Origin: Bacteroidales bacterium | GTDB taxonomy: Bacteria > Bacteroidota > Bacteroidia > Bacteroidales > GCA-2711565 | DNA length: 64,000 nt | Assembly: GCA_963675215.1 (NCBI GenBank) | Contig: OY775914.1 | Span: forward strand, 11,181-75,180 | Reading direction: 5' to 3' | Shown: positions 24,387 to 31,013 of the stretch, one piece after another | Position numbering within the stretch: position 1 is the first letter of the stretch | Layout: each line of letters begins with the position of its first letter | The notes under the pieces: model-generated | Database searches by the model: none | Seen by the model: only the letters and a program-made list of their open reading frames with translations | Told to the model about the DNA's origin: nothing | Made by a program: the position numbers and the translations under genes

Positions 24387-24480
24387 AAAAAAACCCTACG
24401 GAGTACGCAGGGTTAAAGTTCTTTATGAACTACGGCATATAGCCTTATTGTGATAAGATAATTTATGGATATATTATCTG
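24387..24480 (-). ncRNA. Predicted tracrRNA of the type II-C system
   Basis: The minus-strand RNA reads ..AUCCAUAAAUUAUCUUAUCACAAU-AAGGCUAUAUGCCG-UAGUUCAUAAAGAACUUUAA-CCCUGCGUACUCCGUAGGG-UUUUUUU. The anti-repeat (24447-24473) pairs with repeat positions 1-27 through 22 Watson-Crick pairs plus one G:U, with an internal 2-nt mismatch. An AAGGC nexus hairpin follows (24434-24446). A terminal hairpin (24394-24412) carries a G:U that works only in the minus-strand RNA, and is followed by U7. The 5' end is inferred from the promoter. Confidence 0.75.
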
Positions 24481-24484
24481 TTAA

Positions 24485-24515
24485 CAAATATAACATTTTT
24501 AGATATAAAAACAAA
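24485..24515 (-). promoter_or_regulatory. Bacteroidota-type promoter for the tracrRNA
   Basis: The minus strand reads TTTG (24515-24512), then 19 nt, then TATATTTG (24492-24485). This is an exact match to the TTTG-N19-21-TAnnTTTG consensus, placed a few nt upstream of the anti-repeat. Confidence 0.6.
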
Positions 24516-24596
24516 TGACTAACTTTAGGGTTTAGTTTTACTACTCCCTCAAAAACTAGAAATAAATTATTTTTCTACTTTAATCAAAATTTTCAT

Positions 24597-27500
24597 ATGG
24601 CTAGAATATTAGGACTTGACCTCGGTACCAATTCGATTGGCTGGGCATTAATTGACGATAAAGAAAATAAAATCATAAATACCGGGGTTAGGATTTTTCA
24701 GGAAGGAATAAACAGAGATACCAAAGGGGGTGAACTATCCAAAAACGAAACACGCCGTAATGCCAGGCAATTAAGAAAACAATACTTTAGAAGAAGCTTG
24801 CGAAAGAAATTATTGTTAAAAATTCTGAAAGAAAACCAAATGTGTCCAATTGAAGAGAATGACTTTTCAACTTGGATTAAAATGAATCCTTATAAATTAA
24901 GAGCACTAGCTATTCATTCTAAGTTAAGTCTTACTGAGATAGGTCGAATATTTTTCCATATCGCACAAAGAAGAGGATTCAAAAGTAGTAGAAAGTCAGG
25001 GAAAGAGGATGGTAAGATATATTCAGGCTTAAAAGAAAGTGGAACCATTGGAATTGACCAGACCCAAGAAAATATCGCAAAAGGTTATCACACTCTGGGT
25101 GAATATTTAGCATCTATCGATCCAAGTGAGGAAAGACTAAGAAATCGATATACAACTAGAAGAATGTATGAACAGGAGTTTGAGCTGATTTGGGATAAGC
25201 AAGCTCAATTTCATCCTAAAACTTTTACACATAGTTTAAAGGATAAACTTGGCTATGAAAAAGAAGGAATTATTTTTTATCAACGCAAACTTAAATCACA
25301 AAAAACAAATATTGGGAAATGTACGCTTGAACCAAATAAACACAGGTGCCCAATAAGTACTCCGGTTTATGAAGAGTTTAGGACTTGGCAATTTATTAAC
25401 ACCATTCAGTATGATCAAAAAAGGCTTAGTAATGATGAGCGAGAAGTAGCTTCTCAATTCTTTTTTAATAAGGCTTCATTCAAATTCTCTGAACTAAAGA
25501 AAAAATTAGGATTATCAGAATACAACTTCAATTATGATGATGATCAAAAAATACCGGGGACATCCACAATATCTACTTTTAGAAAACTATTTACGACTAA
25601 TATTTGGGAAGCAAAAACTGACAAAGAAAAAGATATTATTTGGCATATTTTTTTTAGTGCTGAAGACACTGATTGGCTAGAAGAGTATGCAAAAACAAAC
25701 TGGAATTTTGATCAAAAAACCAGTGCTAAGTTAAAAAACATCAACTTAAAACAAGACTATTCAAACCTCAGTCGTAAAGCCATAAACAATATTTTACCAT
25801 TCTTAAAAAAAGGTTATTTGTATAATGATGCAGTTGTTTTGGGTGGTATTAGAAATGCAATTGGAGGAGAAAAGTTTGATGCACTGGAAGAAACCGAATA
25901 TAACATGATCATCGACGGTTATTTTGCAGCCAAAAAGTTTAAAAACAAAGAAGGTGAATTAATTGAATTAGTTAAGAACTTTTTAATTGATCATTATCAT
26001 CTTAACGACAAAGCTTTAAAAAAATTATACCACCATAGTCAGGATACCGAATCAATGCTAGTTGTATCAAAACTTCCTGAACCAGAAAACCTAAGAAACC
26101 CCATTGCTCAGCAAGCCATTTTTGAATTAAGAACTTTAATTAACAAACTAATTGAAAATTACGGCAAACCGGATACCATCAACGTTGAAATGGCACGGGA
26201 TTTAAAATCATCAAAAAAACAAAGAGATGAATATCGATTTAACCAAAGAAGAAATCAAGAGAAAAATGATGAAGCAAGAGTAGAGGTAGAAAAGTTTGGC
26301 TTAAAACCATCACGAAATAACATACAAAAATACCTTTTATGGAAAGAATTAGAGGCAAAAAATGGAATTGCAGTTTGTCCTTATACAGGTAAGACGATCA
26401 ATGAGGAGGATGCGCTTGGCGAAAACAATAAATTCCAGATTGAGCATATAATCCCCTATAGTGTTTCACTTGACGACAGCTTTGCCAACAAAACTCTCTG
26501 CGATGCCAAAGAAAATCAGAAGAAGGGAGATAAAACCCCATATCAGTTTTATGGTGGTGATAAAAAAGATTGGCAGATGAGATCTGAAAGGGCTTTTAAA
26601 TTACTCCCTTATCATAAAGCGAAGAAGTTTGTTTCAACCAAAGAATTCCAGCTAGATGATTTTATACAACGACAGCTTAATGACACCAGAATAATAAGTA
26701 AAGCAGCCAAAGATTATTTAAAACAACTCGGAGTAAAAGTTTCAGTATTACCAGGACAATTAACATCCGAACTAAGAAGCAAATGGGGCTTAAACAATAT
26801 TCTGAATCCCGAAGAAGGGAAAAAAACACGCGATGATCACCGACACCATGCGATAGATGCCTTAACTGTTGCTGCAACTAAGCAATCATTTCTGCAAGAA
26901 ATGAGTAAGTGGAATAAATACAATAAATCATATGATTTAAAAGACTTCCCAAAACCCTGGAAATCATTTTTTGAAGATACGCAAACCTCCATAAACAATG
27001 TATTGGTATCATATCATAAACAACATAGAACCATTACAAAGGCAAATAAAACTATTAAAAAAGATGGGAAGAAATATAAATCAAGTGGAATATCAGCAAG
27101 AGGACAACTGCATAAAGAAACTGTATATGGCCAACACTTGAGTTCTAACGGAGAAAAATACTATCACGTCCGTAAGCCTTTAAATACCATTGATAATAAA
27201 GCCAAAGTAGATAAAATAGTTGACCCCATGGTTCGTTCAATCATCGAATCTTTTTTAAGAGGAAAAGGAATTAATGTTGATGAGAAATATAAGTTAGACA
27301 AAGACATTTTTTTCAAGATAAATGAAGATACAGGCCAAAAAGAAACCCTCATTTATCTACCAAACAAAAATGGAAGCCCAATTCCAGTTAAAAAAGTAAG
27401 GATAAAAGAATTTTCGACAGGAGCCGTAAAACTTAAAGACCATATTAACCAATGGGTAGAACCCGGAAATAACCACCACATTTCAATTTATAAAAATGGA

Positions 27501-27869
27501 GATGCTTATGTCGAAGAGGTGGTTACCTTTTGGGAAGCGGTTGAAAGGAAAAAACAAGGGCTTCCTGTTATTAATAAAACCCCTAAAAACGGGAATGAAT
27601 TTGAATGCTCATTACAAATTAATGATTTATTCCTACTAAATATCAATGAAGTAGACATCAACTGGGAAAAACCTGACCAGAACTATTTAAGCAAATTTCT
27701 TTATCGTGTCCAAAAACTATCTGCTTCTTATTATACTTTCAGGCATCATTTGGCTGCAACTCTAGAATATAAGGATGAAGAAATAACGATTCAAAGTTTC
27801 AAAGCTTGGAAAGGACATAACCCACTAAAAGTAAAGATAAACCATTTTGGGGAAATTTCAAGATTTTAA
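24597..27869 (+). CDS. cas9: Cas9, type II-C, 1090 aa
   Basis: RuvC-I: ILGLDLGTNSIGWAL. Arg-rich bridge helix: RRNARQLRKQYFRRSLRKK. RuvC-II: INVEMARDL. HNH: CPYTG...QIEHIIPYSVSLDDSFANKTLC. RuvC-III: DDHRHHAIDALTVA. All catalytic residues appear intact. Confidence 0.95.
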   Translation: MARILGLDLGTNSIGWALIDDKENKIINTGVRIFQEGINRDTKGGELSKNETRRNARQLRKQYFRRSLRKKLLLKILKENQMCPIEENDFSTWIKMNPYKLRALAIHSKLSLTEIGRIFFHIAQRRGFKSSRKSGKEDGKIYSGLKESGTIGIDQTQENIAKGYHTLGEYLASIDPSEERLRNRYTTRRMYEQEFELIWDKQAQFHPKTFTHSLKDKLGYEKEGIIFYQRKLKSQKTNIGKCTLEPNKHRCPISTPVYEEFRTWQFINTIQYDQKRLSNDEREVASQFFFNKASFKFSELKKKLGLSEYNFNYDDDQKIPGTSTISTFRKLFTTNIWEAKTDKEKDIIWHIFFSAEDTDWLEEYAKTNWNFDQKTSAKLKNINLKQDYSNLSRKAINNILPFLKKGYLYNDAVVLGGIRNAIGGEKFDALEETEYNMIIDGYFAAKKFKNKEGELIELVKNFLIDHYHLNDKALKKLYHHSQDTESMLVVSKLPEPENLRNPIAQQAIFELRTLINKLIENYGKPDTINVEMARDLKSSKKQRDEYRFNQRRNQEKNDEARVEVEKFGLKPSRNNIQKYLLWKELEAKNGIAVCPYTGKTINEEDALGENNKFQIEHIIPYSVSLDDSFANKTLCDAKENQKKGDKTPYQFYGGDKKDWQMRSERAFKLLPYHKAKKFVSTKEFQLDDFIQRQLNDTRIISKAAKDYLKQLGVKVSVLPGQLTSELRSKWGLNNILNPEEGKKTRDDHRHHAIDALTVAATKQSFLQEMSKWNKYNKSYDLKDFPKPWKSFFEDTQTSINNVLVSYHKQHRTITKANKTIKKDGKKYKSSGISARGQLHKETVYGQHLSSNGEKYYHVRKPLNTIDNKAKVDKIVDPMVRSIIESFLRGKGINVDEKYKLDKDIFFKINEDTGQKETLIYLPNKNGSPIPVKKVRIKEFSTGAVKLKDHINQWVEPGNNHHISIYKNGDAYVEEVVTFWEAVERKKQGLPVINKTPKNGNEFECSLQINDLFLLNINEVDINWEKPDQNYLSKFLYRVQKLSASYYTFRHHLAATLEYKDEEITIQSFKAWKGHNPLKVKINHFGEISRF

Positions 27870-27891
27870 ATGCCTGCTCATACTATTAACT

Positions 27892-28782
27892 ATGCTTAAA
27901 CGAATCTTATATTTCTCAAAACCTTATCACTTAAACACCAAGAACGAACAACTAATCATTACCAATAAAGAAAATGGAGAAATTAAACAAGCCCCCATTG
28001 AAGACATTGGCTTTGCCGTTTTTGATCATCCCCAAATTACGTTTACGCAATCGGTTGTTCAAATACTGGCCGAAAATAATACAGCCATTGTTTTTTGCGA
28101 CAAAAAACATCACCCTTCTTCTCTGCTTTATCATTTAGATTCAAATACGGTTCAAAGCGAAATTTTCAGACATCAAATTAATGCCAGCGAACCCCTAAAA
28201 AAGAATCTTTGGAAACAAACCATTGAGGCTAAAATAAAAAACCAAGCAGCTCTTATAAAAAAAATCGGTAGAGACGAAAGCCAAATTCATTTACATTCAC
28301 AATTGGTAAAGAGCGGCGACACAGATAACCGAGAGGCTCAAGCCGCCCGTTTATACTGGAAACGATTGTTTAGTGAAGGATTTAAGCGCGAGCGCTATGG
28401 AATGCCCCCCAATCCCAGTTTAAACTATGGGTATGCCATTTTACGAGCAGCCGTTGCACGTGCACTCAGCGCATCCGGGCTTTTGCCAACACTGGGGATT
28501 CACCATCACAACAAATACAATGCCTATTGCCTTGCCGATGATATTATGGAACCCTATCGTCCTTTTGTTGATGAATGCGTGCTGGAAATTAAAAAGAATA
28601 ACCCGGATTATCACATCATCGATAAAAATCAAAAAGCAACCTTATTAAACATTTTAAACAAAGATGTGTATTTTGAAAATATAAATCGCCCCCTGATGGT
28701 AGGGCTAAGCATCACAACGGCCTCACTGGCCAGGTGTTTTAATGGAAAAACCAAGAAATTATTATTTCCATCATTTAAATAA
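27892..28782 (+). CDS. cas1: Cas1 integrase
   Basis: The type II Cas1 N-terminus is MLKRILYFSKPYHLNTKNEQL. I chose the internal ATG at 27892, not the track start at 27847, which overlaps the cas9 stop. Confidence 0.9.
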   Translation: MLKRILYFSKPYHLNTKNEQLIITNKENGEIKQAPIEDIGFAVFDHPQITFTQSVVQILAENNTAIVFCDKKHHPSSLLYHLDSNTVQSEIFRHQINASEPLKKNLWKQTIEAKIKNQAALIKKIGRDESQIHLHSQLVKSGDTDNREAQAARLYWKRLFSEGFKRERYGMPPNPSLNYGYAILRAAVARALSASGLLPTLGIHHHNKYNAYCLADDIMEPYRPFVDECVLEIKKNNPDYHIIDKNQKATLLNILNKDVYFENINRPLMVGLSITTASLARCFNGKTKKLLFPSFK

Positions 28783-29121
28783 ATGAGTTTTAACCGGCTA
28801 AATGCCTATCATATTATGTGGCTGTTTGTATTTTTTGATCTGCCAACCAACACTAAAAAAGAAAGAGGCTTTGCCGCTCGATTCCGAAAAAACCTCTTAA
28901 AAGATGGCTTTAGTATGATGCAATATTCGGTTTACAACCGTCATTGTGCCAGTCGCGAAAGTGCCCATGTTCATATAAAAAGGGTTCAATCATTTATAGG
29001 CGAAAAAGGAAGAGTTAGTATTATGATGGTCACCGACAAACAATATGGTGAGATTATAAACTATTGGGGTATGAAAGAAGACCCCCTGCCCGAAGCACCA
29101 AAACAATTAGAACTTTTTTAA
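28783..29121 (+). CDS. cas2: Cas2
   Basis: 112 aa. Type II Cas2 signature: YHIMWLFVFFDLPTNTKKERGFAARFRKNLLKDGFSMMQYSVY. It abuts the cas1 stop. Confidence 0.9.
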   Translation: MSFNRLNAYHIMWLFVFFDLPTNTKKERGFAARFRKNLLKDGFSMMQYSVYNRHCASRESAHVHIKRVQSFIGEKGRVSIMMVTDKQYGEIINYWGMKEDPLPEAPKQLELF

Positions 29122-29167
29122 ATTAATCCTAATTCAAAAAACCAGATTTGAACCTTGCATAAGTATT

Positions 29168-29202
29168 CAACCTTATCATTTTTTTAATCAAGAAAATCAC
29201 GC
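29168..29202. repeat. Decayed (fossil) CRISPR repeat at the cas2-proximal end of the array
   Basis: caaCCTTATCATTTTTTTAATCAAGAAAATCACGC resembles the repeat at roughly two thirds of positions by eye. Shared blocks are TTATC, TTAATCAA and ATCAC. It sits one spacer-length (34 nt) before repeat 1. Confidence 0.35.
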
Positions 29203-29236
29203 TTCACTTTGATTACCAGAAGGCTTATCGCCAACT

Positions 29237-30327
29237 AATATCTTTTATCCATAAAATTAATCAAATCACAACATTACAATACAAACTAGCTGTTCCAAAC
29301 TTAATATCTTTTATCCATAAAATTAATCAAATCACAACTCACACATACTACCAATGGTCGATCTTTTTAATATCTTTTATCCATAAAATTAATCAAATCA
29401 CAACTGTATAATCATCACCACCGCTTTCAAATCCAATATCTTTTATCCATAAAATTAATCAAATCACAACTAGAGTTTGTATGTTTCCGCATGATGGGCA
29501 AATATCTTTTATCCATAAAATTAATCAAATCACAACTACAACAGGAGGTGAGTTTTATAGCAGCTTAATATCTTTTATCCATAAAATTAATCAAATCACA
29601 ACATATATCCGGCGTATTCAGTCTAACCTTATAATATCTTTTATCCATAAAATTAATCAAATCACAACTATTTCCCACTGCATAATAGGCAGGCAATGAA
29701 TATCTTTTATCCATAAAATTAATCAAATCACAACTATTAACGCCCATTGATTGTGCTTTCTTTTAATATCTTTTATCCATAAAATTAATCAAATCACAAC
29801 ACACGACCGGGTTCTTTAATTCCTTTTAAAATATCTTTTATCCATAAAATTAATCAAATCACAACAGTATGATGTAAACGGTAAAGAATATTCAGAATAT
29901 CTTTTATCCATAAAATTAATCAAATCACAACTAGCCTCGATGACATTAAATTATTTGATGAAATATCTTTTATCCATAAAATTAATCAAATCACAACTAT
30001 TTCCCACTGCATAATAGGCAGGCAATGAATATCTTTTATCCATAAAATTAATCAAATCACAACTATTAACGCCCATTGATTGTGCTTTCTTTTAATATCT
30101 TTTATCCATAAAATTAATCAAATCACAACTCAAAACGTCCAAATGTACCATGTGATTTAAATATCTTTTATCCATAAAATTAATCAAATCACAACTGTTT
30201 GGTGGTAGCCCGTGCCAAAGTTTTAAATATCTTTTATCCATAAAATTAATCAAATCACAACATAAAGAAGGTGAAACCGTTGCACGACCTAAATATCTTT
30301 TATCCATAAAATTAATCAAATCACAAG
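29237..30327 (-). CRISPR. CRISPR array: 17 repeats of 36 nt and 16 spacers (15 of 30 nt, one of 29 nt)
   Basis: The plus-strand repeat is AATATCTTTTATCCATAAAATTAATCAAATCACAAC. In the crRNA sense it is GTTGTGATTTGATTAATTTTATGGATAAAAGATATT. Repeats start at 29237, 29303, 29369, 29435, 29501, 29567, 29633, 29699, 29765, 29830, 29896, 29962, 30028, 30094, 30160, 30226 and 30292. The last repeat ends in G where the others end in C. Strand is assigned from the GTTGTG start and tracrRNA complementarity. Confidence 0.97.
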
Positions 30328-30472: not shown

Positions 30473-30530
30473 TTTGACTAGTTAATTACTATATTTCAAC
30501 TAGTTAAGTTAAGTGTTTTGACTAGTCAAA
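30473..30530. promoter_or_regulatory. Three phased palindromic boxes (TTRACTAGTYAA)
   Basis: The boxes are TTTGACTAGTTAA (30473-30485), TTCAACTAGTTAA (30495-30507) and the perfect palindrome TTTGACTAGTCAAA (30517-30530). Their ACTAGT cores start at 30477, 30499 and 30521, exactly 22 bp apart. Confidence 0.45.
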
Positions 30531-30632: not shown

Positions 30633-31013
30633 ATGTCAATTCGATTCAAAGCTGTAAAACTCAAAGACAATATTAATCCGGAAACACCCGATATGTTTAT
30701 CGCCGTAGCAAAAAGTCGTGGTATAACCACATTGGATGAACTTTCAAAAAATATCGCACTCATGTCAACAGTTAGCCGGGCCGATGTTTATGCCGTGCTT
30801 ATTGCCTTATGCGATAGCCTGCCACAAGCTTTAAGTAAAGGAAATATTGTTCGTTTAGGTCATTTCGGAAGTTTTATGATTGGGCTGGGGAGCGAAACAG
30901 CTGAATCGTCCGACGAAATTACGATGAAAAAAGTGAATCAAATAAAACTACGTTTTAGACCTTCAAAAGAAATTAAAAATGCATTAAAACAATTTGAATT
31001 AGAAAAAATTTAG
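30633..31013 (+). CDS. Bacteroidota-specific HU-like (histone-like) DNA-binding protein
   Basis: 126 aa. Its layout is typical of the HU_HIG-like family (KAVKLKDNINPETPDMFIAVAKSRG...VRLGHFGSFMIGL...IKLRFRPSKEIKNAL). Confidence 0.7.
   Translation: MSIRFKAVKLKDNINPETPDMFIAVAKSRGITTLDELSKNIALMSTVSRADVYAVLIALCDSLPQALSKGNIVRLGHFGSFMIGLGSETAESSDEITMKKVNQIKLRFRPSKEIKNALKQFELEKI

Follow-up and report, generated by a model that had tools for sequence, protein, structure and literature searches.

Type II-C CRISPR-Cas9 loci (short palindromic repeats, clustered and regularly interspaced, with the effector Cas9) are known by the thousand. The locus described here occupies positions 24387 to 30327 of a stretch of 64,000 nucleotides (nt) from a Bacteroidales bacterium (contig OY775914.1 of assembly GCA_963675215.1); we refer to this whole 64-kb stretch as the window and count positions from its first nucleotide. 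Several described systems allow the locus to be placed. First, the Bacteroidota II-C enzyme RspCas9 (Rikenellaceae sp., WP_035473639, 1213–1214 amino acids (aa)), which belongs to clade VIII of Gasiunas et al. 2020, cleaves DNA in vitro with a GAAA-linked single-guide RNA (sgRNA) (PMC7606464). Its repeat is 36 nt long and starts GUUGUGGUUUGAU, and its trans-activating CRISPR RNA (tracrRNA) contains ...CUUACCACAAUAAGGCCAUGGGCCGCAGG..., a second hairpin, and ...CUCCGCGUACUCCGUGGAG followed by a U-run. Second, the II-C system of Flavobacterium columnare, with the repeat GTTGTGGTTTGATTAAAGATTAGAAAACACGATATT (PMC5395568), supports spacer acquisition in vivo and plasmid interference with the protospacer adjacent motif (PAM) NNNNNTAAA (Hoikkala et al. 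2021, PMC8092290). Third, Fp2Cas9 from F. psychrophilum CN46 is likewise a Bacteroidota II-C Cas9, and for its system TAnnTTTG-type promoters have been described and a TTG within each repeat is the proposed start of array transcription (PMC10309648, PMC12609912). Finally, ThermoCas9, GeoCas9 and Nme1Cas9 (PDB 9ar4, 8jtj/8uza and 6jdq; 1082–1095 aa) are II-C enzymes of solved structure.

In gene order and RNA architecture the window locus keeps to the known rules of type II-C, as it does in its predicted array polarity, and nothing about it is biologically unexpected. On the evidence of its sequence, the locus very probably constitutes a complete type II-C CRISPR-Cas9 adaptive immunity system on a Bacteroidota chromosome, with a predicted function in defence, and it is probably canonical and functional as well as complete. 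Its parts follow one another contiguously in the order tracrRNA (minus strand), cas9, cas1, cas2 and array, with every gap at most 115 nt:

24387..24480, minus strand: tracrRNA with an anti-repeat, three hairpins and a terminator; 5' end predicted to about 3 nt
24597..27869, plus strand: cas9 of type II-C, an open reading frame (ORF) of 1090 aa with TIGR01865, HNH_4 and RuvC_III matches and the invariant catalytic residues
27892..28782, plus strand: cas1 of type II, 296 aa from the likely ATG start, matching TIGR03639 with 295 bits
28783..29121, plus strand: cas2, 112 aa, matching PF09827, TIGR01573 (68 bits) and PADLOC Cas2_II (E = 9e-44)
29122..29236, no strand assigned: gap of 115 nt between cas2 and the array, abutting base 36 of the repeat and containing A7 and T6 runs; putative acquisition leader
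29237..30327, minus strand (the sense of the CRISPR RNAs (crRNAs)): CRISPR array with 17 repeats (36 nt each) and 16 spacers, of which 14 are unique

The first-pass annotation of this DNA had proposed a complete type II-C locus made up of tracrRNA, cas9, cas1, cas2 and array, and each of these is present at the positions given. Cas9, Cas1 and Cas2 all pass the curated cutoffs of their families, and a type II Cas1 and a Cas2 adjoin the array, as in a type II adaptation module. Family models of Pfam and TIGRFAM together with PADLOC found neither csn2 nor cas4 in or adjoining the locus, in agreement with that annotation, and the assignment to subtype II-C holds because both genes are absent.

The Cas9 protein is one large effector; its RuvC domain is split (I/II/III), and an HNH domain is inserted. 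Its alignment with TIGR01865 runs end to end (residues 4–1085; 638 bits against a cutoff of 100), and Pfam places HNH_4 (PF13395) at residues 594–649 and RuvC_III (PF18541) at residues 687–811. The catalytic residues of SpCas9 are D10, E762, H840, N863, H983 and D986. In the window Cas9 we find D8, E531, H617, N640, H751 and D754, all six of which are invariant across 17 relatives (alignment A1), and the RuvC-I/II/III and HNH motifs are thus as intact as had been claimed; D8 and H582 of ThermoCas9 align with D8 and H617. A fold search with an AlphaFold model of the protein (mean predicted local distance difference test score 75, predicted template modelling score 0.42) returned Cas9 structures only, with ThermoCas9 first (E = 2e-42), then Nme1Cas9, GeoCas9 and HpaCas9, and the top sequence matches in the PDB are ThermoCas9, GeoCas9, Nme1Cas9 and HpaCas9. 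Judged from these best sequence and fold matches, the protein appears to group with II-C orthologs. At 1090 aa it belongs, as first proposed, to the compact size class of ThermoCas9, GeoCas9 and Nme1Cas9, whose domain order, catalytic residues and locus order (tracrRNA-cas9-cas1-cas2-array) it shares. However, its identity to these three is only about 19–21% in structural alignment, and repeat, tracrRNA and host phylum differ.

With respect to novelty, a public NCBI/ENA contig of 4.05 Mb already carries the Cas9 protein at 100% identity. The next-best relative, from a Logan assembly (locus L081), is 57% identical, compact Cas9s of Flavobacteriales are 43–51% identical, and relatives found in a scan of genome contigs reach at most 48%. 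Near-identity to a characterised ortholog was looked for and not found: the values are about 30–32% for enzymes of the RspCas9 type and about 20% for the solved II-C structures. More precisely, RspCas9 itself is 32% identical over the N-terminal 400 aa and is about 120 aa longer, and a full-length comparison with a Rikenellaceae proxy for it (L058) gives 30%. Fp2Cas9 differs more widely, with 1548 aa, 46-nt repeats, the PAM SNAAAG and a place in a different sub-clade; its length and repeats rule it out as the closest relative. NsuCas9, PsuCas9 and GfoCas9, which were described in a 2026 preprint, belong to other II-C lineages. The host is placed in Bacteroidota by housekeeping genes; its NadE is 89% identical to the nearest homolog and about 70% identical to the nearest named relatives (Bacteroidales, Lentimicrobium).

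Guide RNAs of the family found in the window also accompany much larger enzymes. Five relatives of 1528–1615 aa (L032, L045, L035, L025 and L042) have a tracrRNA of the same family and the same type of 36-nt repeat. Their Cas9s have a core in common with the window Cas9, 33–47% identical by segment; their chief difference from the compact Cas9s is an insert of about 300 aa directly before RuvC-III, between window residues 738 and 742, and they have extra length near residues 200–222 as well.

The start of cas1 probably differs from that of its ORF. The ORF (27847–28782) opens at a TTG at 27847, the TIGR03639 match begins only at ORF residue 18, and an ATG is found at 27892. This ATG is most likely the true start on sequence grounds, giving a product of 296 aa; the Cas1 of the closest relative, L081, is likewise 296 aa long, and the 296-aa form matches PADLOC Cas1_II with E = 5e-111.

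The identification of the tracrRNA is secure, its exact 5' end being a prediction. The following elements can be read in the region, all on the minus strand:

24485..24515, minus strand: putative tracrRNA promoter, TTTG-N19-TATATTTG, which fits the Bacteroidetes -33/-7 consensus perfectly
24471-24447, minus strand: anti-repeat, which pairs with repeat nt 1-27
24444-24434, minus strand: nexus-like hairpin GGCUAUAUGCC, within AAGGCUAUAUGCCG
24431-24417, minus strand: hairpin 2, a predicted fold
24414-24392, minus strand: terminator hairpin of 9 bp, whose 3' arm runs into a U7 tract at 24393-24387

Repeat and anti-repeat form a duplex of 21 bp (-22.8 kcal/mol), in which the 8-bp lower stem is followed by a 2x2 bulge, 3 bp, a 4x2 internal loop and a further 10 bp, and the tracrRNA fold is more stable than that of shuffled sequences (z = -4.4). 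A homologue of the tracrRNA was found by nhmmer upstream of cas9 in 34 of 81 loci, nearly always antisense to cas9, and the alignment of these RNAs (A3) has the invariant core AUCUUAUCACAAUAAGGCUAUAUGCCG. RNAalifold recovers the three hairpins from it, with compensatory changes on both sides in 8 of 14 pairs. The upper part of the repeat varies between loci and the anti-repeat varies with it; the 8-bp stem and the 2x2 bulge are retained, and the repeat of each locus pairs best with its own anti-repeat. What had been put forward as a tracrRNA candidate on the minus strand is therefore borne out by duplex, fold, terminator, 34 homologues and compensatory changes. No Rfam family reaches its gathering score anywhere in the 64-kb window, and the sub-threshold matches over the tracrRNA region are all to unrelated RNA families; we note that a conserved Bacteroidota tracrRNA is thus matched by no Rfam model at gathering score.

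The putative promoter of the tracrRNA contains the Bacteroidetes consensus TAnnTTTG (PMC10309648). The pattern has six full matches in 64 kb and 5.4 are expected by chance, so the weight of this match lies in its position: the promoter is upstream of the anti-repeat, and 13 nt separate its end from the anti-repeat start. The TATATTTG box is also kept in the closest relative, L081.

The first-pass annotation had further held that an sgRNA could be designed without RNA sequencing, from repeat nt 1-24, a GAAA loop and the tracrRNA from 24473. The scaffold can indeed be read from the sequence, and the proposed molecule folds as intended. On the other hand, this junction leaves a 7-nt loop, and the 5' end of the tracrRNA as well as the start and processing of the crRNA remain predictions. 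A flush junction is obtained with repeat nt 1-27, GAAA and the tracrRNA from 24471.

The guide RNA of the window belongs to a family that is already known and that includes the guide RNA of the biochemically characterised RspCas9. The marks of this clade VIII, RspCas9-like family are a 36-nt repeat that starts GUUGUG(G/A)UUUGAU and a tracrRNA core AUCUUAUCACAAUAAGGCUAUAUGCCG, and the window has both; the published Rsp repeat and tracrRNA carry a close variant of this core. The RspCas9 PAM NVNDCCY is not transferable to the window Cas9 because the C-terminal region differs. In direct comparison the F. columnare repeat is identical to the window repeat at 26 of 36 positions. The exact F. columnare repeat is present in many of the loci with a homologous tracrRNA, and in L004, L010, L014 and L032 this tracrRNA lies antisense upstream of cas9; the compact Cas9s among these (L004, L010) are 44–47% identical to the window Cas9. 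The cas1-cas2-leader-array module of F. columnare appears to have the same internal polarity as that of the window. In the one Flavobacterium locus examined, that of Flavobacterium facile (L010, 7553-9648), the order is tracrRNA (minus), cas9 (plus), array, cas2 (minus) and cas1 (minus); the module is inverted relative to cas9 as compared with the window, its internal polarity being kept. In L004, L012 and L014 the array likewise begins soon after cas9.

The array has a spacing of 66 nt, once 65 nt, with fifteen spacers of 30 nt and one of 29 nt; this number of repeats at a fixed spacing is far beyond chance. On the minus strand the repeat reads GTTGTGATTTGATTAATTTTATGGATAAAAGATATT, and 16 of the 17 copies are identical. 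The counts first reported (a 36-nt repeat, 17 repeats, 14 unique spacers) stand, and the repeats are uniform save for the last. Two features within the array stand out:

29633..29764, minus strand: block R7-S7-R8-S8, with an exact duplicate at 29962-30093 (R12-S12-R13-S13)
30292..30327, minus strand: terminal repeat R17 with G1->C, at the cas2-distal, that is, transcription-upstream, end

The duplicated block accounts for the number of unique spacers, 14 of 16, because S7-S8 equals S12-S13 (S7 = S12 and S8 = S13). The copies extend over 171 nt at 99% identity with a period of 329 nt, and three other spacers lie between the two-spacer duplicates. This duplication probably arose by recombination between repeats and not by re-acquisition.

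The strand of the crRNAs follows from the tracrRNA. Its orientation is fixed by the terminator, and its anti-repeat pairs with the GTTGTGATTTGATTAATTTTATGGATAAAAGATATT sense of the repeat, so that the crRNAs are minus-strand RNAs that run towards cas2, antisense to the cas operon. Arrays that read antisense to the cas operon and towards the leader have been reported for Neisseria. In the II-C locus of F. columnare, too, the array is transcribed in the direction of the leader, and base 36 of the repeat is the one nearest to it (PMC8092290). By analogy we infer that the gap between cas2 and the array is the leader, that S1 would be the newest spacer and that R17 would be an old terminal repeat. 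A degenerate extra repeat in four relatives (L007, L009, L016, L020) is always at the cas2-distal end (5' in crRNA sense), which fits this polarity.

Taken together, these features suggest how the system would work. A tracrRNA of about 95 nt would be transcribed from its own Bacteroidetes-type promoter, upstream of and antisense to cas9, and the array would be transcribed on the minus strand in the direction of cas2, from a start in the cas-distal flank or within each repeat. The anti-repeat is predicted to pair with repeat nt 1-27 through the 8-bp lower stem, the 2x2 bulge and an interrupted upper stem. Cas9 and the dual RNA would then cut spacer-matching DNA bearing a 3' PAM, HNH (H617, N640) cutting one strand and RuvC (D8, E531, H751, D754) the other. 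New spacers would be inserted by Cas1-Cas2 at the cas2-proximal end of the array.

One spacer points to a possible origin. The reverse complement of S15 (30196-30225) encodes, by direct translation, FGGSPCQSF, which is motif IV, the catalytic motif, of C5 cytosine DNA methyltransferases, and the probable source of the spacer is a methyltransferase gene carried by a mobile element. The GC content of the spacers, 37.5%, is close to that of the window, 36.4%. In crRNA sense, the last, PAM-proximal position is A or T in each of the 14 unique spacers (about 0.001 by composition, before correction for 30 positions). This bias is not a feature of the family, since 62% of 555 spacers of relatives end in A/T, which equals their composition; it reflects either chance or a preference specific to this locus.

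Several results weigh against a complete and functional system. Searches of GenBank phages, PLSDB plasmids and IMG/VR, and for S15 also of JGI metagenome contigs, brought up no protospacer of any spacer. The first-pass annotation had proposed to derive the PAM from such targets; in their absence the PAM is not derivable here and recent activity is unproven. Specifically, the 14 unique spacers gave only matches at the level of chance or of a shared motif against GenBank phages by blastn (the best, 26/28, being S15 on phage dcm genes) and no match against PLSDB plasmids. Exact 20-mers from the 3' ends of S1, S2, S3, S4, S6, S7, S15 and S16 led to no credible target in IMG/VR; the one match of S3 (L082) is attributable to chance, as only 3 of the 10 remaining nt agree. 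A 22-mer of S15 had no match in metagenome contigs. The exact 36-nt repeat also has 0 matches in metagenome contigs, and hence there is no population-level sign of spacer turnover. In addition, relatives pair more perfectly in the upper stem of the repeat:anti-repeat duplex (about -29 kcal/mol, versus -22.8 in the window). The pattern TTTG-N(17-22)-TAnnTTTG has no match at the array or its cas-distal flank, and sigma-70-like matches are level with chance, none of them a convincing crRNA promoter. A Bacteroidetes promoter inside the repeat was considered and is not favoured: a TTG is present at repeat nt 2-4, in line with a proposal made for F. columnare, yet the repeat has no TAnnTTTG -7 box.

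These results raise the alternative that an intact-looking locus is in fact silent or has stopped adapting; it would then be a remnant, immobilised recently, in which recombination alone still changes the array. It would account for spacers with no detectable target and for the lack of an identifiable crRNA promoter, and the sole recent event visible in the array is an internal block duplication (S7-S8 = S12-S13) and not a new spacer. Nevertheless, we consider it improbable. All three ORFs are full length with catalytic residues and family scores intact, 16 of 17 repeats are identical, and the tracrRNA retains promoter, anti-repeat and terminator. Missing protospacer matches are, moreover, usual for uncultured Bacteroidota; for a fish pathogen that is well studied, matches were reported for no more than 7 of 30 spacers (PMC10309648).

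We give still less weight to a Cas9 serving chiefly outside defence. Roles of this kind, in endogenous gene regulation or natural transformation, have been reported for some type II systems. Nothing positive speaks for such a role here in a search limited to the 64-kb window of a genome of roughly 4.05 Mb. Against it speak intact Cas1 and Cas2 and the lack of self-targets, since with up to 8 mismatches allowed the spacers match no other site in the window. S15 also speaks against it, being the antisense of motif IV from a gene for a C5 cytosine methyltransferase, which mobile elements typically carry. Lastly, the idea that another subtype (II-A, II-B or II-D) has been misread as II-C is refuted by the tests run and retains almost no probability: its one support, a weak partial match to the Cas9d (II-D) model NF049971, scores 124 bits, far below the cutoff of 375, csn2 and cas4 are absent from a locus whose tracrRNA-cas9-cas1-cas2-array order has gaps of at most 115 nt, and the nearest structures are exclusively II-C.

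Favoring, as we do, a complete type II-C system, we regard the locus as a further member of a well-populated family, of practical and modest value. The mining of compact II-C orthologs is routine (for example, in a 2026 preprint). What the locus offers is an uncharacterised compact ortholog about 30% identical to the nearest one tested biochemically, together with a tracrRNA/sgRNA scaffold that is ready for a PAM screen and in which we have good confidence, given the conservation and covariation of the RNA in 34 loci. A bolder proposal is conceivable, although we think it rather unlikely to hold as a whole. Under it, the 1090-aa enzyme would be a naturally minimised member of a Bacteroidota Cas9 lineage whose other members have inserts of about 300 aa. 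The PAM it recognises would be new to the toolbox, and its crRNAs would come from starts inside each repeat, with no promoter in the leader; together these features would turn it into a compact editor fit for use, its sgRNA being fully predictable.

Some minor observations concern the surroundings of these genes. In the closest relative (L081:5939-7142), an extra ORF of 107 aa that matches no family lies between cas9 and cas1. It is followed by about 300 nt of partly palindromic repeated motifs of about 10-12 nt (AGTAGNNAACTAC...CAT(A/T)AGTAG variants), and nothing resembling them is present in the window. The genes that flank the window locus encode a proline-racemase-family protein, an S37 peptidase, an HU-family protein and a C45/CBAH-like hydrolase, all metabolic apart from the HU-family gene, and none of them is matched by PADLOC. 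Between the array and the HU-family gene (30633-31013), positions 30473-30526 contain repeated units of about 22 nt that include the palindrome TTGACTAGTCAA; these could be an operator of the HU-family gene or part of the upstream flank of the array.

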